A DNA stretch of 64,000 nt from Elsinoe ampelina (Eukaryota), in assembly GCA_010093995.1 (NCBI GenBank), contig ML992504.1, forward strand, positions 868,001-932,000, in the 5' to 3' direction. This document shows, piece by piece, positions 26,100 to 52,569 of this stretch. The first letter of the stretch is position 1. Each line of letters opens with the position of its first letter. The translations under genes were made by a program, and so were the position numbers. The notes under the pieces are model-generated. The model did no database searches. It was not told the DNA's origin and saw only the letters and a program-made list of their open reading frames with translations.

Positions 26100-26405
26100 C
26101 TCGGTCGTGCTTGGATCCAACCCGCCGTGAGCGAGAATCAAGCAGCAGACAGTGCATTTTAGCCGCACAATCGCTTGTGTGGAGTCCGAGCGGCCTTTTG
26201 ATCGGTGAAAGATGTAATGTGTTACAAAAAGAAGTGCGGACAGAAGCAATGAGATGTCTGATGGGTGCGAACCTACCGTGCAGCGCTGCAGACCATGCCA
26301 CCGGGCCATGTCCTTGCTCATGGTGGGGGACAGTGATTGTCCAATCGCCCTAGCTTGTTGTAACTGGCAAATCGGATCGAGAGACGTGTATTTCATTCAG
26401 TGAGT

Positions 26406-29400: not shown

Positions 29401-30625
29401 TTTACTTATTAGGAATTAGTATACCTTCTAAATAGGAGATATAGTTTTTAATATTAATATCTAGTCTAAAGAATATAGTAATAGTATTTATAGTTATAAT
29501 AACCTAGTTATAGTAAAGTATATATATAAGAATTACTCTTCTAGTTTTAGCTTTTAGTATTAGTATAAAGGTTTTAATAAAGTTAATATTCTTCTTTTAA
29601 GTAAAGCTTCTTATAATTTAATAAGCTTTATATCTCTTAACTTTACTATTAATAAGCCTCTTAGTCTTAAAGACCTATTTATCTATTATTAGTTTAATAT
29701 CTTTTAGTACTTATAATTTTTTAATAATTAGAAAGGTTTTAGTATCTTTTAGAGTATTCTATTCTACTTCTATTATAGCTTACTAATAATACTCTTTAAG
29801 AGAAGATAGTACCTCCTTTACTATTTATAAGTCTAGTTTAAAGTTAATAACTATAGATTTAATAATTTTACTATTATTAAGTTTCTTATAATTAATTTAG
29901 TAATATATTCTAAAAGACCTTTTAATAGTTTTATATAGTAAAAGTAATCTCTTTTTCTTACTAATTAGAGGTTATATATTAAAAAATATAATAAGGAAAT
30001 TAATATTCTTATTTTAAGTATATATTAATAGTTAATTAACTTTAACTATAGAATTAAAGATAAAATATAATTTATTAATAACTTTAAGTAGTAATATTAT
30101 AAGGTCTTTACTTTTCTAGTTAGTATTATTAGATTACTTAGTAGGTTACTTCCTTTATTTATTAATAGGTTAGAGATCTATTTAAAGGTAATAATATTAA
30201 AAATAATAATATTATAAATACTTCTTCTATTCTTTAATAGGGGTAGATAGTTATTTAAGAGTTATAAGGTAGTTAAAGGTTAGCTATTTAGTCTAAGTAG
30301 TTTATAGGTTCTTATAACTAAAAGGTAGTTAATTATAGCTATAGCCTTTATAGTAATTACTATTAAATATCTACCCCTCTTAAAGCTATAAAGCCTTAAG
30401 TAGTTATACCTATAGAATATATAATTATTAGATAAGTTATATTACTTAATCTTTATAAACTATACCTTTATTAAAAGTAATATAAGGTAATATTAGAATC
30501 TTTCCTTTCTAAGCTTATTAAGTATAGTACTAATAGAGTATCTAGATAAGGTAATTAGTTTTAAAGTTAAATTATATTCTAATATACTATTTAAGTAGTA
30601 CTTTAGCTTAAAATTTATATAACTT
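26406..30625 (-). mobile_element. Ty1/copia LTR retrotransposon, 3' part (integrase C-terminus, RT, RNase H, 3' region), heavily RIP-mutated
   Basis: De-RIP motifs on the minus strand: K-F-W-A-E (~30600-30615), KGLYGLKQA (~29355-29385), VYVDDF (TAT ATT AAT AAT, ~29235-29250), RSKHIDLKE (~28453-28478), QLADILTK (~28368-28390). A PPT-like AGAGGGGAAG at 26497-26506 suggests a very short 3' LTR (~26406-26496; boundary uncertain). Confidence 0.88.
26864..27520 (+). pseudogene. Antisense accessory ORF of the copia element with a DUF3716-like Cys motif (RIP-degraded)
   Basis: One frame from ATA(=ATG) at 26864 contains only TAA/TAG stops. De-RIP 27371-27517 reads CTKCQ...GKFEQCVVVPGQFHGACVNCAYNSQYETCSL. 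Confidence 0.65.
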
Positions 30626-30740
30626 CGTTACGAAAATCCTAAGCCTAGAAAGCTAGAACTACTAGAACTACTAGAACTATAGAGTATTTTACTGTTATTA
30701 TACTAGGAGATCTAGTAGTTCTAGCTTTTCTACGCCTTAC
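30626..30740. repeat. Left TIR plus subterminal CTAGAACTA repeats, direct and inverted
   Basis: gctagaactactagaactactagaacta (30652-30679) and an inverted copy ctagtagttctagcttttctacgcc (30712-30736). Confidence 0.85.
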
Positions 30741-30959
30741 TAGGCCTACTAGACTCGCCGAGTGCCCACTTTAGAACTAGTTCGTCTACGGAAGTAGGTA
30801 ATTTATAGATATAGTAGGCCTATAAAGGTTCTAGGTTATAGGTTTCTATATTAATCTACTTTGTTAGCTAAATTAGATAGGAAGATTACTATATAAAATC
30901 TATAAGACTAGCACTATATAACTTAACTAACCTAGCTATTCTAACGTTAGTTATGTCCT

Positions 30960-33900
30960 TAGCTACCTTACTTCTTTTGCCTCTTTAAGCTATTTCTTCT
31001 TCTACGCTATATTCTAAAGCATGTTATATATATCGAAATCCGCTATGTTATTAATAAACTTAAGCAAGGAATCTTTAGAAGTATCTTTATCTACTAGTAT
31101 AACGTGTATAATTAAGTATACTTACGTTAGGGAGTATATCCGCCTACCTCTAAGCGTCCTACCTCTCTCTACTATAGTTAATACCTAGGGCTTAATCACT
31201 ATTATACCGTATATGTAGTTTGCCTTACTATCGTGCTTATAAGGCAGAAAAAGGTCTATAAGAACACTAGTGTACTATCGGTAGTAGAGTAGACTAGTAC
31301 CCTTAATGTCCTCTACTATTAGTATATAGCGTAGCTTTGCTAGTAACTTACTATCGAAAGCTAGTAACTTCTCTATCTACTCTTATAAACTAGGTGTCGA
31401 GCTAGATTACTATTCCTATACCTAGAGCTAGTTATATCTCTAGTTTCCCGGCCGGTTCTAATAGTGCTCGGCGTAATATATAAACACTTACTTCTTAGCG
31501 TTAGGATTATTAGTATTATTGCTAGATAGCTAATATATTTATAAAGCTATATAGAGCTTTACTCGTAATAGTAGAGTCTACTTCGAGTCTACTTCGAGGT
31601 AGTCTAACCTATCTAGATTACTAGTTCGTACTTCTCTAATGTCTTAATTGTCTTAATAAATAGTTTAATAATACTCCCGTAGGAAAACTATAATTATCTA
31701 GGACAGTAACGAGCCTTTTAGTATTAGAATAAGCCTCTCGAGCTTCTCTACTATTCGCTACTAATCTAGGCCCTTTAAAGGCATAGACTAATCTAAATAA
31801 GCCTATCTAAACGCTATCTATATGTCGATAGCCTAAGTTACTATAATAGGAGCTTCTAGCGCCTCTCTTCTATTAGCTAGAGTTAATATATATAGTATAA
31901 AGCTACTATTAAAGGCCAATTTAAGGCTAAGTAGATAACAATTATATACTATAACTTAGTTCTCCTATTTGTTCTTCTTGTTTGTTAGCTTAAATAGGTT
32001 CTTAATAAACTTAATATAGTTATACTTAGCATAATTAGAATTAAGGTTTAGAGCTATACTAAAGCGTTAGATAGCTTACACGAAATACGTTATAGTATAC
32101 TACTTTAGGAAGTTAAAATAACTTACTTTATCTCTAGTTTAACTATAATATAGATAGTAAATTTCCTTATATTTATTTAGATAGAAAAGAGTAAGATCTA
32201 TATACCTTAGTATATCTTTGTTATAGCTCTTATATATTATAAGTAGTATAAAGTCTACTAATACCCTTAGACAATATATAGCTTCCTCTACGTATATCTC
32301 GGCTAGGAGAGGAATAAATACTAGTAGAAGTTAATAGAGTAAGCTTTTTTACTTCTTTCTAGTCTATTACTTAATAGTAGAGAAGTAGCTAAACCTTCGT
32401 AGGCCTAGATACGCTAAAATGCCTATAAAACAGTAATTAATAATATTAAGTATATGTTCGGTAGAGGAGCACTTATGTCTAGTAATTCTAGTCTACTCTA
32501 TAGCTACCTTAAAGCGGCATATTTCTAGGGTAGGTATTCTGTCCTATAGTATTAAGGTTGTCTATCTAATAACATATATAAGTACGCTCTTTAAGAGCTA
32601 ATAGAGAATGTCTAGCACTATAGCCTTATAGATGTTAGTCTACTTATAGCTCTATATAAAGTAATTAACATTATATACTAAATCTACACTTACTATTACG
32701 CTTTACTACTATATTTAGATCTACCTCCGCGTAGATATATAAGTACGTAGCTCCGCTCTTACCTTAAGGTCTTCTCTTAGTTCTAGCTTAATTAGGCAAG
32801 TTATATAATAGCGAAGAGACTTAATACTAGTAATCTTAACCTACTCGGCGTAATCTATTATAATAGCTACTATAATTAGGAAACATCTTCTAGTACTACT
32901 ATCTAAATAGATAATATTAACGCCTTTACCTCTAATAATTTACTTAATTAGATTAAAGATCCTCTTTATACACTTATAATAAATAGTTACCTTCTATATT
33001 ATATTACTGTCCTTTATAATAGGTAAGAGCTCTACTAGAAGCTAGCTAGGCTAGGTATTTCTATTGTAGATATATAAAGGTATATTTCTAATAGAAAGGT
33101 AAATAGCGTAAATAGTAAAATCTCCTTAATAATTAGTTATCTAAGTTTAATCGCTTACGAGGATAAGTAGTATAATAGTAGTACTATTAATGTTTATATA
33201 CTCTTAAGCTTCCTACTACTAGTCTCCTAAAGCTAGGTTATTAAAAATTTGCCTAGAGGATTTACCTTCTACTACCTCTATAAACGTTTAAAACAGGCTA
33301 TATACTATATCGTCCTTAAAGCTATAGTACTAAAGAAAGAATTATATTATATCTATTACGTTTATATAGTAGAGAGTATAGCCTATAGCTCCTTAATTTA
33401 TAGGTAGTTAGAATAAAGTCTTTATCTATACTTCTATCTCCGAATAGTTGTCTAATTTATCTATTTAACTACAAAGTTTGTCTAATATCTTAAAACTAAG
33501 CTAATTAGTTAAAGGCTAAATATATAAGTTATATAGGAGATAGGTAATAGTATTCTTACTAATCTTCTCTTCGAAGAGCTATTAAGCAAATATAGTATCT
33601 ATTTTATTCCTAAAAACATAGCTATAGTCTAGATCGTCTATAAACTAGATATCTATCTTAGTAGACCTAGTCCTATAAGGGATTAGTGTTAGGAGTGTTT
33701 ATATATACTCTTTATAGTACTACCTATACTTATAGTATCTTCTCTACTCTTTAACTAGTAGCCTTCTTATACGTCTATATAAAGTAGACTAACCTCCTTA
33801 AAGAAGATAGCTAACTCTTCCTTATTAAGTTTACTAACGAAATAGAAAGAGTAGAGGCCGAGATATACTTTTCTACCCTCTCCTTCTTCTCTCTTATATA

Positions 33901-34302
33901 GTTCTCTCTATCGATACTATACTAGGGGCTAATAGTAGCCCCGTCTATACGTATAAAGCCTCTATCTACTTCGGTATTGCCTTTAGCGTCGAGGTAGACA
34001 CCTAGATAGAGAAAGTCTTATACTACTCTTTCTTTGCTTTATTTATCTATACCTCCTATCTATATATCTTCTCTACTGTTTAAAGATATTTCCTTCTTCT
34101 CTATCTAATATATCTATAGTATTTGTCTTATATATTAGTTAGATAGTTTAGTATATATACTACTAGTATTAATATAAGAATACCTTAGTCTAGCCTAAGC
34201 TAGTATAGGAGATTAGAAGGAAAGTTAAGGTAGTCTTAAGATAGACAGGAGAGAGAGTAGAATATCTAGCTACTACTACTATAAGGGTAGCTTAGTTAGT
34301 AT
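30960..34302 (-). pseudogene. Plavaka transposase (RIP-inactivated); 5' end approximate
   Basis: De-RIP ~33250-33020: IFNDLASGDWWWEAQE..DGATIVPLILASDQTQMTNHQGDFTVYAIYLSIGNIPSHIRN...LLVGLLP. ~32890-32790: RRCFPIVAAIMIDYAEQVKITGIKS.RC.TC. ~32415-32350: AYPGLRRF...KQWTGKE. C-terminal IVHVVP...FVNNIADFD. Confidence 0.88.
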
Positions 34303-34306
34303 AGCT
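33596..34306. repeat. Internal module A (5' part of the transposase gene); second copy at 40451-41160
   Basis: About 700 bp direct repeat, e.g. aactagtagccttcttatacgtctatataaagtagactaacc is present in both copies. Confidence 0.93.
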
Positions 34307-34699
34307 AGAGTAGAGTTAGAGAAGTTCCCGATACTAGATTTTTCCGTGCTATAGCTTTAGAGTTATTAAAGTATCTTTCGCTTATATCGACAGTAGTAGA
34401 GAAGGTGTCTATAGTATCTAGATAGAGTTATATATCTCTTTCTACACGCTTTATATTTACTAGTTACTACTATTATAGTTCGTTCTTGTCGTAAAGAAGA
34501 GAGAAGAAAAGTAGTAGGTTTTATAGTATTTATATATCTCTAACTTCTACTTCGAGCTAGTTCGGCGTTAGTTAGCACCTAGGAGTAATCTACTTTATTA
34601 TACGTGTAAATAATCTAATTCGAAAGGGGTAGGTAAGATACCTTACTACTATAATAAAATTTATTTTCTTAGTATATACTATACTAATCTTAATTAATC

Positions 34700-37600
34700 T
34701 TAATAGGTACTATGCTCTTTAAGTACTACTCTTAACTCTACTTTACTTTCTTAAATATCTTCTCTACTAATCTATAATAAGAATTTATCTATTCGTAGAT
34801 ATTATAGAAGAGAGATATTAAGATAAGTATAAAGGCCTTAGTAGTAGTACTTTTCTAAGACTCTATGTTTCTATAGACATAGCTAAGGTATTACATAATT
34901 CGGCGCCTAAGATATATCGTGTCTAGACTAATTATAGTATTAAATTGTAAGAGGTTAAAGCTAGTCTTAATATATGTTTCTTAGGTAACTAATACCTTTA
35001 ATTCTTCTTTCTTATCTATTGCTATATTAACTATCTCGCTATACTTTTATTAATTGCTAACCCTAGTTAATATAAGACAGACGTTATAGTTATTAAAGTA
35101 AATAAGCTTAGCCTCTTTACTCTCTTAGTACTAGGTAATATACTATATTAGTTAGTTAAAGCTATAAGGGCTAAAGGGATATAGGGACTTACTATATATA
35201 CTAGTATAACTATTATTAGCTTCTAGCTAAAGACTACTACTTGCCTCTTAATCTTCTTATTATACTTAGTGTTTTAGTTAGTTATAGCTACTAGAATTGC
35301 TACTAATACTTTTATCTAGAGACTTTTATAGAACCTATATATATACTACTAGAGGGTACTATTCTTTTTAGCTTTATATAGAGTATTAGCGTACCTTACG
35401 TTTATATTACTAATCTCTTTCTTAACCTTAGAGTGTTTATTATAGATATCTATTAAAGCGAGGAATATAGATAGTACTATAAGCTTGTCGACTATATCTA
35501 GAAAGGATATAGCTTTAGCTAGGCTCTTAAAGACCTTAATAACGTTAATCTCTTCCTTGTCTACTATTTTCTCTTCTCTCTTAAGGCGCCTCTTATTAAT
35601 CTTATTCTTCTAGGCCTTTCTAATCTTATCGAAGTAGTTCTTATAGGCGTAGCTAAGATTCTTATTATACTTAGAGTTAATTTAGATCTTAAGGTTATAT
35701 ATTATATATAGAGAGACACTTATAGTAGGTAATTCTAGCACCTTCTTAAACAGTAAATACATATATCTAGCGCTAACTATTAGTATAACCTTAGCTAGTA
35801 CCTTACTCTATTCTTAGTATAGCTAGTAAGTTTCCTTATCTATATCCTTCTTAGTTTTAGAATTATAGTTATTAGCGAAAGAGAGTATAGACTAGAAGTT
35901 ATTAATGTTCCTTGCCTATAATCTAATATATATAAAGTTAAGCTTATTTAGAATACTCTTCCTCTATTTCAAAGTACCTTCCTTAGGTACTATAGCTAGG
36001 TCGTTAGCTTAGTGTTTAGAGTTCTAATCTATAGCCTATACGTAGCTCTTTATAGGCTTTACTACTCTCTCTCTTTTATTATTAACCTTATATAGATTAT
36101 AGTACCGATATATAGCATAAATAAAGCTAGCTACAATGTTTAAGTATCTAGCTACTAGCGTATCGCTTATATATAATAGAAGAGAATTATTATAGAAGTA
36201 GGCTAACTTCTACTATACTAGCGTGTTATAAGATATAATAGAATAAAATTTGTTAAAGACAATAATTAAGGCTATAAGTTACATCTATAAAGAGGTGTTA
36301 TTAACCTTATATTTTCTTAACTAATTCCTCTCGAAAGTAATATATATTAGATAGTAGTAAATAGTTCTAGGTATAATAAAGACATATTAGTTATTTAGCT
36401 ATTTACCTCGAGGAAAGTTAGATTTAGAGTTAAGAAGTCTCTTAGTAGTAATAGTAGCCTTTAGAGTACTATCCTTGTTCTTTAGCTAGTAATACTACTT
36501 ATAGTAGCTCTCCGGTAAGTTATACTTTATAATAGTCTTATTTAGACTATAAGTATAGTTACTAAACATCTAAGTAATCTTTAATATACTTATTAAGCTC
36601 TAAGCTATAATAGTCTTCTTTCTCTCTACCTACGTAAACTTAAATAGCTTAAGTACCTACTACGTAAGTGTATTAGACTAGGTAATTATAAGGTTTAGTC
36701 TAAACCTCCTTAGGTCTAAGGTAGAATATCTTAGCTCCGGTATTAGAATTGTTACTTTACTATATATCTCTTATATCTCTAGGAATAGCTTCTTAACTTC
36801 TTAAGTCTCTTTAAGGTTACTAAGTATATTAGCTCTTTCTATAGTTAATACTAAAGCTATTACTATCTTACTAAGACCTATCTTATAAGCGAAGATAATA
36901 ATACTATATCCTTTAAGGTCTTACTTTAAGGCGTAAGTAATAGAATATATCTAGAGAGAGAGGATTAGGTATTTCTAATTCTAGCTAGTAAAGACAACTC
37001 TAATAGTTAGTAGATCTATGTCTAGCTTATAGCTAAAGAACTTATAGGTGTAGTCTTATAGCTCTTTACTATACTAATCTAGGACTTAACTTTTAGAGAT
37101 AAAGCTTCGCTAGTCTAGAGCTAGTTTATTACTATTTAGTTTTATAATGTTAGAGCTAGTAAGGAACTAGTTAACCTTATATATTATAATAGTTAGTAGT
37201 ATAGAAACTCTTAGTGTCTCTCTTATAGTAGTTCCTTTTATTATTATCTTCTCTAGTAATAGCTAGACTATATATAGATACTTCTCCTTACTTACTTTTT
37301 GTATTTTAATTTATTTAGGCGTAATAAGAACATCTACTAGAATATTTATAACATTAGTAATATCTTTATCTTTAGCCTCTTTCTCCTCTATATCTTTTAG
37401 CTCTTTTATACCTATAGTCTTTATAGTTTTAATAACTTCTATCTACTTTATAGTTTTAATATCTACTTTAGGAATTATAATATCTACTTTAAGTTCTATA
37501 TTATATTCGACCTTAGTTTAGGTTAGTAAAAGTAATAGCTACTTAATATCTAGAGGAAGCTAAAATTTATTATCTAGAGGAATATAAAATTCTTTATAGT
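34700..37600 (-). pseudogene. SNF2-family (SF2) helicase/ATPase cargo gene, RIP-inactivated; may extend further 5'
   Basis: De-RIP motif I IFAHEMGLGKTVMAL (~36895-36850), II IIVFDEFH (~36267-36244), III MSGTPV (~36171-36154), IV QVVVFGQ (~35245-35222), V ETGFNLSQFNTVI (~34968-34930), VI QCLGRVHR (~34893-34870), all in canonical order. Confidence 0.85.
34951..35354. repeat. Internal module B (helicase C-terminal domain); second copy at 41721-42098
   Basis: Shared ctctcttagtactaggtaatatactatattagttagttaaag and flanks. Copy 2 has a ~27 bp deletion. Confidence 0.9.
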
Positions 37601-39140
37601 GCTTACGAATATTAACTATTAATATTAGTATAGAAATATATAATGCTAAGTATACTTATAAAGAACATCGAGTATTACTTATTTAATTATAGTAATATCT
37701 ATATAGATAATAAAGAATATATTAAATATACTAACGGAGATATAAGATACTAGACCTAAGATAGTAGCGCCTATATCGTATATATCTTTAATAAGTATTA
37801 TATCGAATAGTTCGTTAGAGTCTATATAAAATAGTTTATTATTCTCTTTACTAAAATTCTAACCTTTAGCTAGCGTTAACTTTAGAGCCTCTAAGCTATA
37901 CTAGTAATGTCTAAATAATAAGCCTAGTTCTTTAACTAGTATTAACTATACCTTAATTATGCTTAGACCTCTAGGTTAAACTTCGAAGACTCTTATAACT
38001 ATAATATTAATATTACTAACAAGTTTATTAAAGGCAAGTAGCTAATAGAGGCAATTAACTTATTACTAGTATCTATAATTATAGTTACCTACGCTTATGT
38101 TTATACCTAATAGTATAGTATATAAGAAGTTCGGAAAGGAGCGTTAGGAATTATCGCTATTAGCCGAAGTTCTAGAGGTATATCTATATCTTAGAGGCTA
38201 GGAGTATTACTAGTAGTTATAGTCTTCTTCTCTTCTAAGATCTTACTACTTAGTATTCTTTACCTATAGAATAAATTTCTATATAGTATATTTGTTATTA
38301 AAGCTATTAACTCTACTTAAAGTACATTCTTAGAACTAGGTATAATTATAGCAGCTAGGACAATTAACAAAGAGATTTTTGCTTAGTTTAGTAATAAGCT
38401 TCTACTCGACCTAAACCCTAACTATCTTCTTCTAGGAGTTCTTATTAATATCTTTTAAGGGATTAAAGCCTAGCTCTCTATATATATTATACTACATAGT
38501 TCTAGTATACTTTATTACCTTCTTAAAGTTATCTATAGACTAGTTAAAGATGTTAGTAAAGCATTCTTTAGTCGGTAGTAAACCCTTTACTAGGTATATA
38601 TTAATTTTGTCTATAGTCTATTCCTTAGCTAGCTTTTTGCTAAAGTCGCTAGAATAAGAATTTAATACTATAATTGTATAAGCTTATACCGTAGGTAAAT
38701 CTTATAATAGCTATAGTTAAATAATAGGTAAATAGCTAATATACTTAATTATATATATATTTAAGAGGTATCCTTACGAAAAGCAAGAGTAGAGTAGAAG
38801 GTTAAAGATAATAAATAGTAACTAGTAAATAAAGAAGATATACTTAGAAGGTTATATAGTAGACTATATATTATAAGGTCTTTATTATTTTAGGAGAAAA
38901 GCTATAAGTAGTTAGAAAATCTATATAAAAGCTAGCTCGGCTACCGAAATAGATAGTAACTCGTATATAGCTATTAGCTATAAATTTAAAAGGTATATAA
39001 TAGAATATATCTATTTTATTACATAAAGTAGATAGTAAAGTAGGTATAGAGTAAGTGTCTAAGTTAAATCCAATTACTAAGGTAGTTAATATAGTTATAA
39101 TAGCAATAATAAGAGAGTTAAAGGAAGGATATAGAATTAC

Positions 39141-39795
39141 TAATAGCTTTATACTACTATCCTCTACGCGTATAGAAAGGGGAGGCAATAGCGATAGAAG
39201 CTAAAAGAGTAATATATTATAGATATACTATAGCTAGAGTATAATTACGACCTAGCTTGCTCTATAGTCCTATCTAGATTTAAAGTAGATATAAAAGAGA
39301 ATATAGAAAAGATAGACTATAATAATATATAGTATTAGAAGATACTATATACTAGCGATGCTAAACCTTATAATATTCTCTATACCTAGTAATATCTACT
39401 AGGTAGTATAAGCACTATTACTATAGCACACAAGTACTAGTTAGAGTATTAAGGTCGACTAGACAAAGAATAATATTTCTAGTCTAGGTAATTACTAGCT
39501 TAACTAGTATACTATCTATTATCTATAGCCTCTTCTCTCTACTATAGGTATACTAATCTATTAGTAGGGCATAGTATAGCTAGAGTAAGTATTCTATTCT
39601 ACTCCTTCTAGCCCTTCGAGTTTACTATATTATATGCCTCCTAGTCTATATATATTTATTCTTCTATCTACCTCTTCCTAGAAAGTATAGGCCTATCTAG
39701 ACAAAGGTTAAGTAGAAGTAAATAACGAAGTAGATATAGAGCTATCGAACTAGACAGCCTTATAGTAATATAAACGAGAGTAAGTAAATAACTTT
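39141..39795. repeat. Internal module C (unidentified); second copy at 45809-46463
   Basis: About 655 bp direct repeat, e.g. aaagaataatatttctagtctaggtaattactagcttaactagtatactatctattatctatagcc is present in both copies. Confidence 0.93.
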
Positions 39796-41549
39796 AATAA
39801 TACTATTCCGTTAGGTATAGACTAGTATAGTAACGTAGAGGTCGTCTAGTTACTAAAGGTTTAGTTAGTATTTTAGCCTATTTACTTTAGCTAAGAGCTA
39901 TATACGTCCGCCGGGATATAATACCTACTAATAGTAATTGTTATACTAAGAAACGGCAAAGTTAGTAGCTAGTAGCGTCTACTAACTTCCCCTTCGTAAA
40001 CTACTAGATAAATATCCTAGTAGTAGAAACCTACGTCTAAGAGAAAAGAATATACCCTTACTACCTACGAAGAATAGCCGTTATTAACTATAGAGAAAGG
40101 CCTCCCCTCTAACTTAGCTACTAGGTAGTATATTAGATAGCGAATCGAGTATTAGAGATCTACGTCTAGTTGTAAATTAGATACTATAACTAGAATAATA
40201 AGTAATTTATAGTACTCTACTAAAACTACTTAGTCTTAAAGATAGTACACGTGTTTTAATACTTTAGTAGTATAGTTATATTCCTACTAGTAGAGTGCTA
40301 CCTGTTTCGGTCGAGTATAAGTTACTATAATAGGTATTATAAAGATATTTAACCTTCTAATTCTAGTAATACTATAGAAAACACTTGTAGTTCTAAGCGT
40401 ATTATTATACTATAGATAGCTTACTACAAAGGTAATATAGTAACGGCCGGATTTATCTCCTTTCTAAAGACATAGCTATAGTCTAGATTAGCTATAAACT
40501 AGATATCTATCTCGGCGGACCTAGTACTATAGTAGATTAGTGTTAGGAATAGTTATATATACTTTTTACTATGCTACCTATACTTATAGTGCCTCCTTTA
40601 CTCTTTAACTAGTAGCCTTCTTATACGTCTATATAAAGTAGACTAACCTTCTTAAAGATAATAGCTAACTCTTTCTTATTAAGTTTGCTAATAAAGTAAA
40701 AAGAGTAGAGGCTAAGATATACTTTCCTATCCTCTTCTTCTTCTCTCTTATATAGTTCTCTCTACCGACGCTATACTAGAGGCTAATAGTAGCTCTATCT
40801 ACACGTATAAAGCCTCTATCTACTTTAGCGTTACTCTTGTTATTAAGGTAGATACCTAGATAGAGAGAGTCTTATACTACTCTTTTTTTGCTTTATTTAT
40901 CTATGCCTTTTATCTATATACCTTCTTATCTATTTAAAGATATCTCCTTCTCCTCTGTCTAATATATCTATAGTATTTGTCTTATATATTAGTTAGATAG
41001 TTTAGTATATATACTACTAGCGTTAGTATAAGAATGTCTTAGCCTAGCCTAAGCTAGTAGAGGAGATTAAGAGGAAAGTTAAGGTAGTCCTAAGATAGAG
41101 GAGAAAGAGAGTAGAGTATCTAGCTACTACTTCTATAAGGGTAATATAGTTAGTATAGCTATTATAGAATAAGAATAGAATAGAATAATAAAATAAGTTT
41201 TAATTGTTAGTTATCTACGAATAGAGAGTAAACCTATATAGTTATCTATAGTAGAGAAGATATCTATTATATTAAGATAGTATTTATTATATCTTTCCGT
41301 ATACTTCGCATTTACTAGTATAAACTATAGTAGTAGCTTATTAGTAAGGAGAAGCTATAAGGAGTTAAGTAGGAAGCGACATAGGTAGTTTCTCTAAGAT
41401 CTATTTTGTCTAAGCTTAGTAATAGTTTATAAATAGGTAGTGCCTACTTCGTTTTCTACTTTAGAAATATAAGAGTAAAAACTTTATTCTAATAATATCT
41501 ACTAAACCTCTTTACTAAAAAAGAGTACTACTATTTAAGCTCCTTACAT

Positions 41550-44200
41550 AGGTTAACGCTACTATAGTATAATCCTTAGCTTCGTATATATTCTATATCT
41601 ATAATCTCTTTCTTTATCCCTAGCTATATACTTTAAGTATATAACACTTACGTTAATAGTTACGTTAATAGTTATATTTAGCTAAGAAAGAGTAGATATA
41701 TTCTAGCGTTAAAGTGTATAGAGTTAAGGCTAGTCTCGATATATACTCTTTAGGCAACTAATACCTTTAACTCTTCTTTCTTATCTATTACTATATTAGC
41801 TATATTATACTACTTCTATTAATTACTAACCTTAGTTAATACAAGATAGATATTATAATTATTAAAGTAAGTAAGCTTAGCCTCGTTGCTCTCTTAGTAC
41901 TAGGTAATATACTATATTAGTTAGTTAAAGTTATTTAAGCTAAAAGGGTAAGGGGACTTATTATATATATAAGCGGAACTACTCTCTACCTCTTAATCTT
42001 CTTATTATACTTAGTGTTCCGGCTAGTTAAAGCTACTAGAATTGCTATTAATACTTCTATTCGGGGGTTAATATAGAACTTGTATATATACTATTAGAAG
42101 TAGTAACCTATTTCTACTTTATATAAGCTATTAGTCTAAGAGCTATAAATGTTTCTTCTAGCTATATCTCTTTTATATCTATTGTCTCTAATGTTTCTAG
42201 AAGCGGGAAGTGCTAATACTAATAGTAGAATAAAGATTATAAGAAGAACTAGTTAAGACTTAATTAAACTTTCTAATATCTTAGTAATATAGAGCTCCTT
42301 ACTATTTAAGGTATCTTTACCTTTGTTTACTCTAACCTTACCTACCTTGTCCTTCTAGTTATTATTAATATTAGTTAAGGAGAATCTACTATTTACCCCT
42401 AAAGGCCCTTATATAGTAGAGTAGATAGAGAAATTAACGTTGTAAGTTATATAGGGGGAGATATATATAGTAATAAAACCTAGTTTTCCCTTTAGACGTA
42501 ATTACTATTATTAGGCGCTAACTATCTTTAAGTCTTAAAGAGGTTATAGGCCTATTCCTTAGATAGCTTTCTACTAGCCTTATCTATCTACGTCTTAGTA
42601 TAGTAAAGCTACTTATTTACTTATAGTAATTAAGAGCGAAACTTAACTATAGCTAAACTCTACTCCGAGTAGCCTAGTAGATATATAGAACCTTAGTATC
42701 TCTAAGTACTTTTATTTACTTAGGGTATAGGCGAAGATAATAGTATTTATAGTATAAATAATAAGACATCTACTAAATCCCTTATAGCGCTATAGAGTAA
42801 ATACTATTATAGTTCTTATCTAAATCGCTATAGAAATATAATTTATAAATATAACTAAGCTATATCTACGAGGGTAGTAAAGTAAGGAAATTACTTATGT
42901 TACTAAAGTAGTAACTCTATAACATTACTTATACTATTACTATCTTACGTAAAGGACTTCTATATAAATAAATTTTAAAAAAATAACTAGTCGAATTAGA
43001 GAGGTATAATTATAGCTTTACTATAATAGCTAACTTAAGCGTCTAATTATACTAATAGATCTAGTTTAGCGCTACGTAGAATAGACGTAAGGACAATATT
43101 ACTATAGTTTAATACTTTACTAGTTAGTAAGATTTATCTATTTTAAAAGCTACTTCGCTAGTAAACTAGAACTCTCGTAGACTAGACTTGTCTATCTACC
43201 TACTATACTTTTAGCTAATAGTCTTATACTACTTAGGGGCAATAACTATATTATTTTATTAGCTAGTAAGTGTCTTAATATCTAGTAAAGAAAGTAATAC
43301 TCCTTAGCTACTATATTAGTAATATTACTATTTAATCTTTCTAATTATAAACGTATACTACTTTTATTTCTATAAGTAGTAAGTTCTAAACTAGGTAGTA
43401 ATAAGGACGCCTCTTAATTCCGATATTAGCTATATAGGCTAATCTAGTTTAACACTAAACTAGATAGCGGTCTATACATTAGTAGTATATCTAGAAATAC
43501 TATTTTAATATAGTAGGTCCCTTTAGAGTTTGCTTATATAGTTAATGTTCTTTAATCTAATTACTATACTATAGTAAGCTACTTAAGATCTATAATTTAA
43601 GTAGAGGAATAGTAAGGACTTTAGAATTGTCTTCTACGAGGCTACTATAAAGGAGGTATTTTAATATAGCTAGGGAATTATAATATACTAAGATATATAC
43701 TCTACTATTTTATATCTAAAAGCGAAGAAATAGTAGTAAGACTTACTCTAGTTTAGTATAAGATCTACTACTATAAATCTATCGGGAACTTAGCTTTTAG
43801 TAGTAGATCTAGTTTAGTTATAATTTATACCTTAGTAGATACATTAAGGAATTTTTAGACTAGTATATTACCTAAGTCTAGTATTTAACAAACTTCTAAG
43901 TCTAAATAATTAATAAGGCTCTTATCTCTCTTTTCTCTTTATCTAACTTATATATACTTTACTTCTTATTTACTCCTATATATACTATAACTCTAAGAAT
44001 AGTTCTTCCTCTTTATCCTTAAATTCTATAGTCTTACGTCCTTCTCTATTACTCTTTACTAATATAACTTAATAACTCTTCCTTATATCTTTTAGTATTA
44101 GGTCCCTTAATTTTGCTATAATTCTGTCTATAAATAAGAGGTTATTTCTATTAGAGGTATTATAATATAGAGTTAGGCTCGAGGTATCTTAATATAGTAA
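41550..44200 (-). pseudogene. Second, divergent SNF2-like gene (degenerate motifs); limits approximate
   Basis: Shares module B with helicase 1. Upstream, at equivalent spacing, are possible degenerate motif I (GFMVAD....GKS, ~43780-43740) and Ia (IVIAP, ~43250-43235). Motif II was not recognisable. Confidence 0.5.
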
Positions 44201-46559
44201 GGAGAGTTATTTATTATATATAAAGTCTATTTCTAAACCGAGTAGATTATTATTATTTAAAGGAGCTTACTATCTAGTTTAGTATCTATAGAGGTTTACT
44301 AGGATAATTAGCTATAAATAGTATTAACTCTACTAAAGACCTACCTTAGATATAATATAGTAACTTTAATATGTCTTCTATATCTCGACTAAGGATAAGG
44401 AACATCTTAACCTTTCTAGCTAGTAGGTAGATATAGGAGTAGTTGATAGCTCTAGTAAGGTCTATATTATCGGTAATAAGATCTATATCGTCTAGGTCGT
44501 TCTAGCGTATAAGGAATAGCTTAATATTCTATTTTCTATAAATACTATTCTTATTAATAGCTCGCTAGATCTTCTTAATAGATAGCCTCTTTATACTAGG
44601 TAGATTAATGTTGTTTATAGATATACTCTTTATGTATTTAAGCTTAGTAGTACTATACTATTAATCGGAGGCGACACCTATAAGCTAAATAATAATCTAT
44701 TAATAGTTAGGTATAATATCTAGTTATATCTATTCTATATTATAAGCTAGAGTCTCCTTAAAAGGTAGTAGAGCGTAATTATACATATTGTTACTAGTTC
44801 TAAGCTATAACCCTCTATAATTAAGTAATAGTAGTGCGCCGCCTAAACTATAAGGTCGCTTAGGTATTATTATATCTAGCATATTAGGTAGGCTACTCTA
44901 TCCTATAGTCCTTTTCTTCTTTCTAAGTAACTTAGATCTATAATTTTTATTCTATAGTAAGAAGATCTATATAGCATATTTAGTATTAAAGTCTTTATTG
45001 TTTATGCCGCTACTAAAGACATACTTCTTAAACTAGTTAAAATCTTAATAACTAAGACAATAGACGAAAAGATTTTATACTTTTCTAGAACTATTATTAA
45101 GAATGCTCTTAGAGCTCTTTCTAACCTTATTATACTCTTACGAGCGGGATATAGACTTATTAATAAGAACATTAAGGCCTTACTTCTTACCTTATTTATA
45201 GAAAATGTCTATAGTAGTGTTACTTACCTCTTTAAAGTTATTCTTACTCTAGTTAAAGTATGCTATCTAGAAATCCTTAGCGAAGGTATTATACTTTATA
45301 AGCTCTAATATAATATTATCCTTAGTCTAGTCCTTTACGTCTCGCTTACAGCTTTCGAGTAATAGACGTTTTATTACTAAAGCTATACTTAATATAAGCT
45401 CTTAAATAAATTAGTAAAAGAGTAAGTAAGTATCGGAAGAATAATAACTATATTAAATCTCTAGGCTAAGAACTATAAGATTAATAGATAATTATAAGTA
45501 TTAGGTTTACTAATATAGTAAAGGTATATATATAAGGTGTTTATCGCAATAAAGAGTATACTTTTCTTTATACCTAAAACAGACAAAAAGCATACGCTAG
45601 AATAGGTTAGTGCTCTTTATGCCTATTAATATCTAGTTAGTAAGCCGAATTAAACTCTAGAGATCTAGTTCGTAAAGCTAGCGCTTTTATATATTAGGTA
45701 TTTCTTACTTAAAACCCCTACTACTAGTGATTTTACAATACGTACTATAGTTAATATAGCTTATACTTTAATACAAAAGAGTAGGATAAGAAGGTAATAC
45801 AAAAAGAATAATAGCTTTATACTATAGTTCTCTACGTATATAGAAAGGAGAGGTAGTAGTAATAGAAGCTAGAAGAGTAGTATACTATAGATATACTATA
45901 GCTAGAGCGTAATTACGACCTAGCTTACTCTATAGTTCTATCTAGATTTAAAGTAGATATAAAAGGGAATATAGAAAAGATAGACTATAATAATATATAG
46001 CATTAGAAGACACTATACGCTAGCGACGCTAAACCTTATAATGTTCTCTATACTTAGTAATATTTACTAGGTAGTATAAGCACTATTACTATAGTATATA
46101 AGCACTAGTTAGAGCGTTAAGATTAACTAGATAAAGAATAATATTTCTAGTCTAGGTAATTACTAGCTTAACTAGTATACTATCTATTATCTATAGCCTT
46201 TCCTCTCTACTATAGGTATACTAATCTATTAGTAGAGTATAGTATAGCTAGAGTAAGTATTCTATTCTACTCCTTCTAGCCCTTTAAGTTTGCTATATTA
46301 TATACCTTCTAGTCTATATATGTTTGTCCTTTTATCTACCCCTTCCTAGAAAGTATAGGCCTATCTAGACAAAGGTTAAGTAGAAGTAGATAACAAAGTA
46401 AGTATTAAGCTATTAAACTAGATAGCCTCGTAGTAATATAAATAAGAGTAAGTAAATAACTTTTATAAGTTTCTTTTATTAGGTATAACCTTTTACTTAA
46501 TATTAGAGAATAGCAATAATAGGTAATAGTTTAGGTAATAATAGAGCCTTAATAGACAG

Positions 46560-49500
46560 TAGACGAATAATTAAGGCAGGACATAATTATAAATTAGCTA
46601 AGTCTAATTAACATTATACTTACTTTATAACTCTACCTCTACTATAAATCTGTTTACTTTACCCTTATACTCTCTAGTAGCTATTATTAGCTATAGATAT
46701 ACTAAGTAAGATTAGGCTACGTAGTACTCTTTTACTACTCTAAATAATTCTACTACTTTCTCCTTAGCTTTAATAGTAGCTATAATAACTCTATTCTATC
46801 GAGATAATTAAAGACAGCCTAGGCCTAGACAACCGAGGGTATAAGGAGATATATAGCTTAATTAAGACTATTATATCTTAAAAGAGAATTATTAGAAAGA
46901 CATTTAGATCTATATTAGACAAGGTATAGATCGAAAGGGAGATACTCTTATTAGTACTTAATATATATCTTATAAAGACAAAGTTTTATAGTACTACTAG
47001 TTATATAGAGATAGATAATAGGCAAGTAGCATTCTAAGCGCTTATATATAAGATAAGTATAAACTTTCGATGTAGATAGTAGTAATAGTACTATTATAGC
47101 AACTAGTATAATACCTCTTTTGTCCCCTACTATAGTAGGACTAGTAATATATTAAAGGCTATCTCTTTTAAAGACTTATATTCGCTGCCGAGATACCTTA
47201 AAGATTAACTTAATAAGATGTTACTCGTAATGTAGAAAGATAGAGAAATATGCCCTATCTACTCGCTATAAGATATTATAGAATATATATTATCTAGGAT
47301 TAATACTAATAGTACCTTTAATCTAGACTAGTAAGTATTCTCCTTAATACTTTTAGATAACTATTTTTTCGATTATTAGGAAGATAGATTAGGCTAGAAG
47401 AATAAGTAAATATCTAAATTCGCCGTTATTAAGAATACTATATAGCTTAAGGTAGTTATTCTATTAAAGTAGTTATATAACTAGCCTTTACTTATCTATA
47501 TTAAAGCTAAGAGTAATAAACATTAAAAGCTACTACGGATAAGGTATATTTATTAAAGACATAGAAGAGTAGAATAACTATATCTATAATATTACTATAG
47601 CTAAACTAGATCGATCCTATCTAGTTTACCTTTCTTAAACCTAGAATATCTCGACCTACTAAGAGCTTATTAACTTCTATACTATTTAGCTCTATATAGA
47701 AGCTATAGTTATAGCTACCTCCTACTCTTCGCTTTTATCGCTATTATAGTCTAAGTTATATTCTAACTACTTCTTTACGTCCTTAGCTACGCTCTTAAGA
47801 GAGTTAAAGGTATAGTGTCTACTACTAATAGTATAGTCTATCTTATTATTTAGAGCAATAAAGTCCTTTATACTAATGCCTCTAGATCTAGAAATGTCAC
47901 TTAGGCTTCTATACTCTCGGTACTATATTCCTAGCTACTCTAAGATTATACTAAGATTAGTTAGACCTTACTTCTTAAGGTACTCTTTAGTAGCCTTAAA
48001 ATGTATCTTCTAGCACTACCGCTAGTAATTCTCCTATTTATTACTAGGACTTATATTTAGATAACGTTATTTAGGACTTGCTCTTTATACTTACTATAAC
48101 TTAAGGTAACCTAAGATTACTAGGCATTAAAGAAGCTATGTCTTATATCTCCCTTACTAACCTAGCTATTCCTCTTAAGGTTACTAACAATAGAGTTATT
48201 AAGATTATTAATGTATATCTACTCTATCTACTACTAAGTGTCTACTAATATAACACAATAGTAGTTCTATTTAAGTATACTAAGTAGTAAATCCTTACTA
48301 CTATTAGTTATAATACTTATATTGTCTATTAGCTATAGAATAAACTCTTCTATGCTATTTATATTATTATATACTATATTACCGGAAAGACTAATAAGGC
48401 TTTTATCGAAGTAGATAGTAAAGAGCTACCTTACGCTAAGGCGAATAAATATCTAAAGATTTTTTAGTATCTACTTTAGTATCTACTTTAGCTATCTAGT
48501 TCGTATACCTCCCTAGAAACTAGATAAACTAGACTAGGTCCCTAATATATATTACTAAGCCGAATACCTAACTCTATATATAGTTTCCTTATATATCTAT
48601 TAAATTCCTATACTTATAAAGGTTTAGTATAATAGGCTAGACCTTATAAATTACTTATCTACCTCGATTTATATATATAAGGATAGACATAGTTCCTAAT
48701 AACGTTTAGTATATACCTCTTTCTAATTCTATAAGCCCCTATCTAGGTTAGCTAAGATATATCTTACTTTTTCTAGATAAAGAGAAGAGTAACTAGGGCA
48801 GCTATCTCCTCTTTCTAGCCTCTAACCCCTCGCCTATATAGAATAGTACTAATAAGACAGGTTACTAATGTAGGGATATAGCTCCTCCTAAGTTCTCTAG
48901 TATTATTAAGGCTATTTAGGTATATAAGGAACTACTATAAAGCCTTACGTAGAGGCTTATTAACTTAGAATAGCGCCTATATATCGTAGTAGAGAGTACT
49001 ACTTATTGCTCCGAAGAACAACTAGTATATTATAACAGAGTTTACTAGCTATATAATCTAATACTACTAGTATACTACTACCTTATCTATACGTTAGAGA
49101 AGTATTTAGTATAGTACTAGAGAAGTAGGGGATAGGCTAGAGGTTAACTAAGAGTAGGTTAAGGAATAGTATAAGATTAAGCTCTACGAACTAGATATCC
49201 TACCTAGATCTAGTTTAGCTCTAGTATCTAACGTCCTAGATAAGCTTACGAATAGGCTCCTATATAGTACTAAGTCCTAGGATTAAGTAGAAGAGTTAAT
49301 ATAGAAATAAGTGTCTTATAATATAGTATAGCCTTCTCCTATTTACTATAAAATGCACTATTATAGTCTAATACTATCTAAGCTATTAGTTAATATTACT
49401 AAAGCCTATACTATTTCGAAGAAGTAAGGAGACAACTAGTAATTATAGTAGCATTAGTAATATAATTACCCTTATGCTATTATACTAAGACCTAATCTAT

Positions 49501-52000
49501 TTCGTAAGGCAAAGTAGATACAATAAGCTAGTTAAACTAGAGAAAGAGCATAATAGCCTTATAGTATAAGATTAGCTAGATATAACTACTATCCCTATAT
49601 ATAGATTTAATAACTCTATTAATTAGAGAGCTACTAAAATTATTTATAGATTAAGCTATTATACTTTTGTCTACTATTAAACACTGCTAATAACTATAAG
49701 TAACTATATATAACTATCTTAACTTACTAATATACGTGTCCTACTAATCTAACTACTATAGCTAGATATCTAGTTATATCTAGCGAAAGACTAAGCAATA
49801 ATAAAGAAGAAGATAAGAGCTTCTATAATTTAACCTCGATAGGTAGTTTATAATAGAGAAAAATATAAGCTTATTACTATCTTCCGAAAGCCTATAGCTA
49901 ATAGTATAAGAACGATAAGTACCTATAGCTATAAATAGCAACGACCTACTACCGATAGTAATATTAACTCTTGTCTTTAAACTAAAAGCCTCTATAATCT
50001 ATAGGTAGAAGGTTTAGGGGAGATAGATATTAATACTAAGTTTTAAATCTCTACTAGTATATAAGACCTTACTATTAACACTATTACTCTCTTAAATATA
50101 GTTACTATAACTAGAGTAATAGGGTATAAGAATATAAACCTAATAGTAGACGAAGAGTAGTATAAGCGTAGTATTATCTACTACTAGTAATAGACTAGAA
50201 CTTTATATATAGAGACTAACTCTAAGAAGAAATATCTATTAGTCTCTTTCTTAAAGGTTATAGAAAAAGTAAGTCTAGTTTATACTAAGGTATAGTAGCT
50301 AAATAACAAAGTAGATTAGAGAAGTATTATATAAATATTATAATAGTACTATAGACTATATTAGGAGAGCTATAGAAGTATAGCTAGAGAGTTAAATACG
50401 GAGCTTAACTAAGACAATAGAATAGGTAAAGAAGTAGCTAGAGAATAGTAGCTATAAATATAAGGACGGGAAAGTAGTAAGTATATTCTTTACCTACCCT
50501 AATACTAGGTTATTTAGTAGATTAGGACAGAAGATATTTAGGTAGCCTCCTCGTTACTACCTTTAGTACTACTTACTATAGATATTATAGTCTTATACTA
50601 CCTCTAAGAACAAGGTAGTACTTTATCTCTCCTTTTGTTTTTCTTATTATATTACTCTTAGTAACTATCTATAATGTTTTATTTATTATATCCTAGGGAT
50701 TCTCCGGCTTAAATAAAGATCTCTAGCTAAGATATAATTGCTATAACTTTATTAATCTATATAAGCTCTTCTACTAAATCGACTATGCCTTTCGTTTATA
50801 ATATAAAGGTTAAAGATTAAGGCTTATATAGAAGCTAGGTCGAAGAATAAGTAATCTAGCTAACAGTCGATATAACCTATCTTAGAGGATAATTATTAAG
50901 AGTAATATCGCCTTATACGCTAATATACTTAATAGACTAGAAGATAACAGCGAAGAAGATACTTCTATACTGTCTTAGATAGAGCTAAAGAAGGCAAAAC
51001 ACGCAACTAACGGAATAGATAAGATAGAGTATATATTAATAACTCTTTAATGTAAGTAACAACGTAGAAGGTATATATATTAACTTATATAATAATAGTG
51101 CCTTATATAATATCTTAACCTACTTCGCTTCCTAGATAAGCTAGTTTATATATCTACCTCTTATCTCGAAATACTAAGTAGTATAGGTAGTTTATCTAGT
51201 ATATAGATAGGCCTACCTATAATAATAAGTACCCCTTACTAATCTACTTTGCTACTAATTAATTCTAGTTTATATTACTATTCTCTAACGACATAAGCGC
51301 TAAGTAATTATAGAATTACTATCTAACAAGGAGTATAGAGAGATAGGTTTAAGTAACCTTAGACTAGCCGGTAAGTTCTATACTAAGTTTATAGCTCCTA
51401 AACTATGCCTGCTTATTAGAATAGCCTTAGTTATAAGTATAGCTACTCCTATAGTAGCTATAGATAAAGAGTAGAAACAACGTAGAAGATACGTAGATAG
51501 TAGATTAGAGGTAATCTACTATATAGTAATAAGTATAATATCGAGGAAGTTATAGACTACTATCTTAACTATAGTCTTAAAGTGACTTAGCCCCGTAGAT
51601 AATCGTATACTACTATAGTATAAGGTTAAGAGAGATAGAGGTAGAGGAGATTAGATAGTTAAATAGAGTAATAAGGTGTTTAACGAGCTAGCCTTTAAGG
51701 AGCTAGTACGCCTATAACGCCTCGTAGGGAAGAGTAAGCTATTTATGTCTATAGAGCGTATTAGTAATAATATATACTACTCTCTAATTAATAATTAATA
51801 CTCTATATTATCTATCTATATCTAAGACTGTCTAATATAGAACAACCTCTACACTAAATATGTTAAGTCTATAAAATACTAAGGCGAAGTAGATAATTAG
51901 CCTTACGAAGTAGGTAGCTATATATTACACTAGTACTAGCTATAATATAGAATCTATATTAGCTTACGAAGTAGACCTATGTTTATGTTGCTATAATAGC
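46560..52000 (+). pseudogene. Several unidentified RIP-degraded cargo ORFs in the right arm of the Plavaka element
   Basis: Protein-like de-RIP frames, e.g. EMIKDSLGLDNRGYEEMYGSIETIM (~46801) and RDIAPPEFSGIIEAIQVHKELLQSLTQRL (~48872). No family recognised. Confidence 0.35.
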
Positions 52001-52099
52001 TAAACTAGTTCGGTTAGTATAGTCTGCCTTTTATAACTTTATTTATACTTTCGTAGCTCTTAATTACTATATATAGTAATATAGACAGTAACAACAAGG

Positions 52100-52274
52100 A
52101 CTACTAGTAAGACTAGTAAGCGCTAGGGCGATTAGTAAGACTAGCGAGCGCTAGGGCGATTAGTAAGACTAGCAATAGTTAAGACATAGAGCGAGCTAGA
52201 AATACTAGAAATACTAGAACTACTAGCGATCGCTAGTAGTTCTAGCGTTTCTACGCCCTAGGATTTTCGTAACG
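52100..52274. repeat. Right subterminal repeats and right TIR
   Basis: About 2.5 copies of a ~28 bp unit (tagtaagactagYRagcgctagggcgat), ctagaaata repeats, a perfect 32 bp palindrome at 52214-52245, and a TIR ending ...ggattttcgtaacg at 52274. Confidence 0.88.
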
Positions 52275-52569
52275 TTAGAAATATATTAATTATAGATATA
52301 AGCTCTATAGTTAAAGTATCTAATATAGGTTAATAAGACTAATCTATTATTATTAAGAAGATCTTTCTTTAATTCTTATATAAGGATCTTTTTTATTTTA
52401 GTATAAGTAATTCTATTATTAATATAAATTATAAATTCTACTAATAGGTACTAGAGTTTAAAGAGTACTTTATAGTTAATAAAGATATATTTTATTCTAA
52501 AAATAATAGCTTTATTAGTAGCTTTAAACTCTCTATTTTAATATTAAGTATTAAGTATAGAGATATTCT
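52275..52569 (-). mobile_element. Continuation of the copia element (integrase core) beyond the Plavaka insertion
   Basis: De-RIP IHIDNG (~52430-52412). RAYIHDQHIP reads in frame into KLYKFWAE at 30625 when one TT is kept. Confidence 0.75.

Follow-up and report, generated by a model that had tools for sequence, protein, structure and literature searches.

The DNA considered here is a window of 64,000 nucleotides from Elsinoe ampelina (contig ML992504.1 of assembly GCA_010093995.1, positions 868,001 to 932,000 of the forward strand), in which positions are counted from the first letter. Between 30626 and 52274 it contains an element of 21.6 kb, a transposon of the Plavaka lineage that repeat-induced point mutation (RIP) killed and that is delimited to the base by its inverted ends. 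This segment is probably one fossil copy of a cut-and-paste transposon, and we read its interior of about 17–18 kb as lineage-specific accessory or acquired DNA with internal duplication or recombination, not as demonstrated multi-gene cargo.

Among the DDE transposases, those of Plavaka are placed in the EnSpm/CACTA-Mirage-Chapaev-Transib clade. The assignment of the element to Plavaka comes from the relic of a transposase gene at its left end, which was translated from this single copy with stop codons written as X, a reading sufficient to assign the family:

30890 to 33662, minus strand: Plavaka transposase pseudogene, in one frame and without frameshift (Pfam, phmmer and tblastn; the C-terminal end near 30890 is extrapolated)

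A first-pass annotation of the window, made from its letters alone, had recognised Plavaka transposase motifs here and had named the Pfam Plavaka profile as a check on them. Even in this unrepaired translation the profile PF18759 matches at 32580–33386 (minus strand) with E 8.5e-25 and a score of 88.1 bits (cut-off 26.3), over profile positions 42–317 of 325, and the motifs are confirmed by it. The same profile, as pfam18759, was used to define autonomous Plavaka elements in Marasmius (PMC8290104). Of 1.84 billion representatives searched with phmmer, 504 came out as relatives at E ≤ 1e-3; 117 of them had E ≤ 1e-10 and 10 had E ≤ 1e-30, the best value being 9.2e-98. Among the relatives that carry a name, the nearest are hypothetical proteins from the Dothideomycetes Polychaeton citri and Aureobasidium pullulans. 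When 150 listed relatives were compared with the window by tblastn, all matches fell within 31000–33700 on the minus strand, and residues 50–866 of the relative P0003 (905 aa) were aligned to 33380..31011 in one frame and in a single high-scoring segment pair of 817 residues. From this confinement to one place and one frame it follows that there is one transposase relic without indels and no second copy. The relic takes up only about 2.7–3.2 kb of the 21.6 kb, close to the figure of about 3.3 kb ascribed to the transposase in the first-pass annotation.

The damage in the gene is of the kind expected from RIP. It has 82 stops in 963 codons. In nine relatives 96 columns are invariant, and of these it keeps 43, shows a change compatible with C>T or G>A in 44, and is changed in another way in 9. 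At the positions presumed to be catalytic, which were taken from the motif order in PMC12730594 and are given in P0003 numbering, D140 and D239 are kept and E413 reads K; in the cysteine pair C258 is kept and C255 reads Y. These residue changes are all RIP-compatible.

At the ends of the element stands the 16-mer CGTTACGAAAATCCTA, whose exact form occurs only twice in the window, at 30626–30641 on the plus strand and at 52259–52274 on the minus strand, and the inverted repeat extends to about 40–42 bp, with 37 of 42 columns identical in a hand alignment of both ends (MAFFT places the gaps differently). If RIP-degenerate forms of CGTTACGAAAATCCTA with at most one mismatch are admitted, there are 3 matches in the window against 0.40 expected, a number reached by 3 of 100 shuffles. 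The 13-mer CTAGAACTACTAG, again with at most one mismatch, has 10 matches against 0.73 expected, and none of 100 shuffles reaches 10; seven of the ten are found no more than about 100 bp from one end or the other, in either orientation, and form a palindrome at each end. GC content changes at the exact end bases, rising from 0.188 in the left flank to 0.362 in the element and falling from 0.379 in the element to 0.163 in the right flank. The termini read CGTTACG..CGTAACG. Directly outside each of them stands TT, a candidate target-site duplication (TSD) of 2 bp present once on each side; a 3-bp flank repeat is excluded, even allowing for RIP, by CTT on one side and TTA on the other. The end structures are the following, the tandem repeats having been delimited with Tandem Repeats Finder (TRF):

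30624 to 30625, no strand: TT, left copy of the candidate TSD (read from the sequence)
30626 to 30665, plus strand: left terminal inverted repeat (TIR), starting with CGTTACGAAAATCCTA (16-mer match and GC step)
30649 to 30728, no strand: left subterminal repeats, 3.6 copies of CTAGAACTA, and an imperfect palindrome with 33-nt arms that are 85% complementary (13-mer scan and TRF)
52105 to 52175, no strand: 28-bp tandem repeat near the right end, 2.5 copies (TRF)
52196 to 52245, no strand: right subterminal repeats, 3.4 copies of CTAGAAATA, and a palindrome centred on CGATCG (13-mer scan and TRF)
52233 to 52274, minus strand: right TIR (16-mer match and GC step)
52275 to 52276, no strand: TT, right copy of the candidate TSD (read from the sequence)

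The imperfect TIRs of about 40 bp, the subterminal repeats and the ends definable to the base, all of them proposed in the first-pass annotation, are thus borne out by the inverted 16-mer pair with its 37 of 42 columns, by the excess of the 13-mer at the ends and by the GC steps. A third TIR-like match, at 37338–37353 with one mismatch, has no subterminal repeats nearby and was set aside as a chance occurrence.

The element lies in the AT-rich part of the window. Positions 1–26000 are gene-like, with a GC content of about 0.52, and positions 26000–64000 have a GC content of 0.17–0.36, with TpA/ApT of 1.7–2.0 and (CpA+TpG)/(ApC+GpT) of 0.01–0.29. The element alone gives 1.86 and 0.17 for these two indices, and the genic part gives 0.56 and 1.29. 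The indices are read against the thresholds in common use. Only five stop-to-stop frames of at least 80 aa were found in 26400–64000, the longest of 115 aa, and the description of this DNA as lacking open reading frames (ORFs) agrees with that count.

On these grounds the history of the element may be reconstructed as follows. The transposase of the active ancestor would have bound the inverted ends of about 40 bp and the subterminal repeats of 9/13 bp, cut out the intervening DNA and inserted it anew by a 2-bp staggered cut, with TT left on each side. A TSD of 2 bp would fit the family norm printed for Plavaka (PMC12730594, PMC12581995). The target would have been an older, already RIP-mutated copia-like retroelement, for which the predicted pre-insertion junction is ATAACTTAGAAAT, with a single TT. 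Subsequently RIP ruined the element, whose transposase now has the 82 stops and K in place of E at the presumed third catalytic residue; the transposase lies at the left end, with about 17–18 kb between its 5' side and the right end. What is shown in this scheme are the ends, the repeat in the flanks, the family of the transposase, the death by RIP and the architecture of the interior; that the whole moved as a unit, that 2 bp were duplicated and that the interior had any function is what we infer.

The presumed target is represented in the left flank by one feature:

28778 to 29893, minus strand: RIP-degraded copia-type reverse transcriptase of the interrupted host element (RVT_2; coding score 21.2)

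The RVT_2 match lies at 29129–29707 (minus strand) and has E 1.4e-10. In the copia architecture a junction about 300 codons upstream of the reverse transcriptase should lie near the integrase core. No rve or integrase match was obtained in either flank, in any frame, at Pfam E ≤ 10; the right flank is only about 240 bp long before the long terminal repeat (LTR) of another element begins. The copia integrase said in the first-pass annotation to be split at this point is therefore retained only as far as a copia-type reverse transcriptase is present on the left, the integrase itself being undetected on both sides. Together with one TT the element measures 21651 bp, or 3 x 7217, so any frame continues arithmetically across the insertion. 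As a separate observation, within the copia flank at 29900–30625 (minus strand) the reverse transcriptase is in the frame of 30625 and the 600 bp by the junction are poorest in stops in the frame of 30624, which points to an indel or a non-coding stretch there.

The interior of the element has a modular structure. Two tandem modules of about 6.2 kb, A and B, share their borders and have unrelated centres:

33590 to 35756, no strand: border blocks b1–b2 of module A, paralogue of 40444–42501
39070 to 39821, no strand: border block b3 of module A, paralogue of 45735–46489
40444 to 42501, no strand: border blocks b1–b2 of module B, paralogue of module A
45735 to 46489, no strand: border block b3 of module B, paralogue of module A

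Block b1 pairs 33590–34320 with 40444–41174 at 86% DNA identity, b2 pairs 34931–35389 with 41700–42134 at 77%, with an extension at the protein level to 35756/42501, and b3 pairs 39070–39821 with 45735–46489 at 88% (87.6%). The differences in b1 and b3 amount to 162 transitions and 33 transversions (162/195; b2 uncounted), and in the module centres transversions outnumber transitions. The left border of module A, at about 33590, coincides with the start of the transposase homology (33620–33662). An apparent direct duplication of 6.3 kb at 65% identity proved to be an artefact, produced by scoring AT-rich DNA permissively; true paralogy is limited to the three blocks. GC content per kb is homogeneous throughout the interior (0.25–0.33).

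Six-frame Pfam searches of 34801–40802, 40601–46602 and 46401–52274 gave nothing at E ≤ 0.01, and neither reverse transcriptase nor integrase nor any other domain was found in the six frames of 34801–52274. Rfam and tRNA scans of 26000–64000 were likewise without a match. As a control of sensitivity, the equally RIPped gypsy neighbour at 55110–62127 still yields five gypsy-type domains in Pfam. Coding potential was judged by a codon-usage model trained on the RIPped transposase, with 100 Markov simulations as the null (95% at 14.3, maximum 17.0). The model finds again the copia reverse transcriptase (21.2) and the gypsy pol region (18.9), and in the interior it gives the following:

35151 to 37631, minus strand: coding-like 'ORF2' in the frame of the transposase, a stop-poor frame with scores of 25.2, 18.6 and 16.8 and without a Pfam match
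38177 to 38695, minus strand: second coding-like stretch, in another minus frame, score 18.6, without a Pfam match
44166 to 45566, minus strand: coding-like 'ORF-B' in the centre of module B, maximum 22.2, without a Pfam match
46490 to 52104, no strand: 5.6 kb on the right without a domain or a clear coding signal, only 47590–48063 being marginal (15.1)

Every coding-like stretch that exceeds the null maximum lies on the strand of the transposase, and the interior contains at least two further degraded coding regions on that strand, coding-like and with no recognisable domains. The coding-like statistics cover only about 4.4 kb of some 18 kb of non-transposase DNA. At Pfam E ≤ 10 the coding-like frames gave only a LysM match with E 0.054, which is below the LysM cut-off and was rejected as chance. 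A word-based search for homologues of ORF2 was empty, but the copia reverse transcriptase flank used as a control was equally empty, so that such a search is uninformative on protein garbled by RIP.

Further copies were sought in two public sequencing runs (X1 and X2) of one sample, probably the source of the assembly, over 30200–50199, a stretch of 20 kb that is shorter than the element and in which an excision joint would not show. The run contigs have no joints over this stretch, and contigs that are 95–99% alike over the element differ by 168 transitions and 3 transversions in X1 and by 130 and 3 in X2. Such variants, consisting almost only of transitions, and the depth together indicate that much of the element is present in one or more other copies, RIPped differently. 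In metagenome contigs 243 pattern matches were obtained, and 7 of these were confirmed to encode relatives. The seven loci match the window only over the transposase, at 30975–33662, and the degenerate TIR of the window is absent from them save for three chance-like matches with 2 mismatches. One of the seven, L001, has an intact ORF of 934 aa (PF18759, E 2.2e-73) between inverted 17-mers about 4.3 kb apart, and an ORF with a helicase domain (3–632) lies just outside these 17-mers.

Two side observations were made in the same runs. At 30200–30866 the summed contig depth is 4130 in X1 and 3372 in X2, against about 150 and 300 elsewhere (more than tenfold), and a flank contig at 30229–30557 has ordinary depth. 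It seems that some short sequence within about 30558–30866, the end or the subterminal repeats, is present in very many copies, and short non-autonomous relatives are a possible source of it. In addition, in one X1 contig whose match to the element begins at 31824, the sequence in front of the match is CCCTAACCCCGCCCTAA, which resembles a telomere repeat; there may be a further copy that is cut short by the end of a chromosome.

Several findings weigh against the reading of the segment as one transposed Plavaka unit with accessory or acquired DNA. By our estimate TT on both sides would arise by chance about once in nine times in such an AT-rich flank, and this pair is weak evidence when taken alone. 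The minus frames poorest in stops (3 stops in 80 codons on the right, 9 in 208 on the left) join only on removing 0 or 3 bases, not 2, which is also weak evidence. The TT reported in the first-pass annotation does stand on both sides and is a candidate 2-bp duplication, with this frame test lending no support to the removal of 2 bp; the rejoining of the host gene in frame, claimed there as well, is not found after the removal of one TT. The termini match none of the printed Plavaka motifs (TGT..ACA, CATCA..TGATG, CATAC). To judge from the motifs, this mismatch speaks against membership in the PlavakaA/B subgroup and not against the lineage defined by the transposase. Summed contig depth is about 1–1.7x up to 43.5 kb and 1.5–4x from about 43.5 kb to 50.2 kb, and parts of the interior may be separate repeats. 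In the seven related metagenome loci nothing homologous to the interior was found, and L001 appears to be a compact single-gene element, although its exact ends are not defined; a long interior is thereby not shown as a feature of the family.

These findings bear on how the 21.6 kb came about, for which other explanations deserve consideration. It is possible, if doubtful, that the Plavaka element was at first modest, between a few kb and about 9 kb long, and grew only after its insertion, when a different and unclassified repeat, in two copies (modules A and B), and possibly further repeats inserted or recombined into it; the greater part of the 17 kb would then belong neither to a cargo nor to the original backbone. 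Modules A and B do resemble members of one repeat family, with borders 77–88% identical, mainly transitional differences in b1 and b3 and unrelated centres; the left border of A meets the start of the transposase homology, the depth is uneven with loose contig ends inside the element, and L001 looks compact. Against it, the modules have no terminal repeats, duplications or transposition-related domains and equal the rest of the element in GC content and RIP level, and their common orientation at a distance of 0.6 kb fits tandem duplication or recombination better than two insertions. We regard as unlikely the view that the whole 21.6 kb was a giant Plavaka with cargo, a DDE counterpart of Starships in which several functional genes, about 18 kb in all, travelled as passengers. 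An interior without domain, RNA gene or homologue in the Pfam, Rfam and tRNA scans, coding-like over only a quarter or so of its length, built in part from duplicated border blocks, not common to relatives and with no sign of host gene capture is difficult to reconcile with it. Its favourable points are the single pair of ends that encloses everything between sharp GC steps, the extra coding-like regions on the transposase strand, the lack of any sign of nested retroelements in the interior and the existence of giant multi-ORF Plavaka/EnSpm elements elsewhere (10.1101/2025.02.11.637652; PMC6431247). The 'cargo of about 18 kb' and the 'giant multi-gene mobile element' of the first-pass annotation had been derived by subtraction only, and with no domain at E ≤ 0.01, limited coding-like DNA and a modular duplication inside they are not sustained.

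A more far-reaching version, that a Dothideomycete-type Plavaka lineage with the CGTTACG motif grew beyond 20 kb through exchangeable gene modules, is in our opinion distinctly improbable. If true, every module would consist of a gene of unknown kind set between the same borders of about 0.75 kb and 2.2 kb, and the element would be a DDE-transposase vehicle with a built-in cassette system carrying several passenger genes in a RIP-active ascomycete. Least probable is that the ends belong to two different copies, the left one accompanied by the transposase and the right one of another copy, and bracket unrelated DNA after deletion, recombination or a macrotransposon-like event. The heterogeneous depth of the interior, the transposase abutting a duplication border and the frame test, which does not speak for a clean 2-bp event, would be understandable in that case; however, the flanks are alike in their extreme GC content (0.188 and 0.163) and in TT, the ends are in correct inverted orientation with matching subterminal architecture, and no internal end-like sequence with subterminal repeats exists, the match at 37338 having none. 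The single fossil Plavaka copy with accessory or acquired, internally rearranged DNA remains the explanation that we prefer.

The element may be compared with several known systems. In PlavakaA a 2-bp TSD and TGT..ACA termini were described, and in PlavakaB a TSD of 2–3 bp and CATCA..TGATG termini (Kojima 2025, PMC12730594). Like these Agaricomycotina elements (see also Iyer et al. 2014, cited in PMC12730594), the element has PF18759, TIRs and a 2-bp flank repeat, and it keeps the presumed catalytic aspartates and, from the C(2)C pair, a single cysteine; unlike them it has CGTTACG..CGTAACG termini, a RIP-active ascomycete host and a length of 21.6 kb, and it is a dead copy. The TET/JBP dioxygenase gene carried by PlavakaB was not seen, since in the scans described there was no Pfam match of any kind outside the transposase. 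In the ascomycete Tuber, Plavaka has a 2-bp TSD and the TIR motif 5'-CATAC-3' (PMC12581995), a motif different from that found here, and is known as consensus families from a genome with low RIP. CGTTACG is a new terminal motif in relation to the printed ones, and families in the supplement of PMC12730594 may be closer. In the literature surveyed Tuber is the only ascomycete with described Plavaka elements, and Plavaka and Dothideomycetes occur together only in a 2017 survey that contains each word once.

No DUF3435 or other tyrosine recombinase of the Starship captain type was found at Pfam E ≤ 0.01 in the six frames of 34801–52274 or in one frame of 30702–35000, whose sole match was Plavaka. 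Typical Starships are far larger than the 21.6-kb element. With Starships it shares only the notion of a large, possibly passenger-bearing element in a filamentous ascomycete, and it differs from them by a DDE transposase and TIRs; the statement that a DDE-type transposase stands here in place of the Starship tyrosine recombinase holds for the frames scanned, given the PF18759 match. Plant CACTA/En-Spm elements are often long and contain extra ORFs or captured fragments. The likeness to them consists in a related transposase clade and in direct and inverted subterminal repeat arrays near both ends, and the differences are the absence of CACTA termini, a flank repeat of 2 bp and not 3 bp, and a Pfam match to Plavaka and not to EnSpm families.

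The closest parallels in size are red-algal. Giant Plavaka elements of Bostrychia measure 17.4–19.1 kb and have three accessory genes, PAG1-3 (bioRxiv 10.1101/2025.02.11.637652), and EnSpm elements of Chondrus measure 16–20 kb and have 4–5 ORFs (cited in PMC6431247). The size class, the repeat arrays inside the element and the presence of a transposase and further ORFs within one TIR pair are common to them and to the element described here, which belongs to a different kingdom and has no detected PAG2 or other accessory domain. The PAG2 domains PF01555 (DNA-methylase) and PF00856 (SET) gave no match in the six-frame Pfam search of 34801–52274, in which RIP lowers sensitivity. With multi-ORF elements of 16–20 kb already described in red algae (10.1101/2025.02.11.637652; PMC6431247), the novelty claimed in the first-pass annotation for a giant multi-gene DDE element was too strong.

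As it stands, the element is an annotation of use and not a new mechanism. Even from DNA in which RIP has left no ORF, as this case shows, a large DNA transposon can be recovered with base precision, and annotations of the AT-rich compartments of ascomycete genomes probably miss a good many elements of this sort. The case also places in a RIP-active ascomycete a member of the Plavaka lineage whose terminal motif is new and whose nearest named relatives are only 'hypothetical proteins'. If the interior proved to be common to mobile copies, this would be a fungal case of the red-algal giant multi-ORF Plavaka type.

Some observations concern the surroundings of the element. The border between the gene-like and RIP compartments is sharp, GC content falling from about 0.52 to about 0.2 at 26000–26400, and the part from 26.4 to 64 kb consists of nested transposable elements, at least four in number. 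The gypsy LTR begins with TGTTACGAACC (55110–55125) and the Plavaka end with CGTTACGAAAA (30626–30641), with 8 of the first 9 bases alike, which is probably a coincidence; in Tuber, Plavaka consensus sequences had been misclassified as LTR elements (PMC12581995). The gypsy neighbour is a complete, RIP-degraded Ty3/gypsy LTR retrotransposon at 55110–62127 (minus strand), with LTRs at 55110–55565 and 61665–62120 that are 92.8% identical, TG..CA ends, the 5-bp duplication GAGGT and Pfam domains that include RVT_1, RT_RNaseH, Integrase_H2C2 and SH3_Tf2-1. It is nested, in the opposite orientation, in an older sibling that occupies 52517–55109 and 62128–64000.

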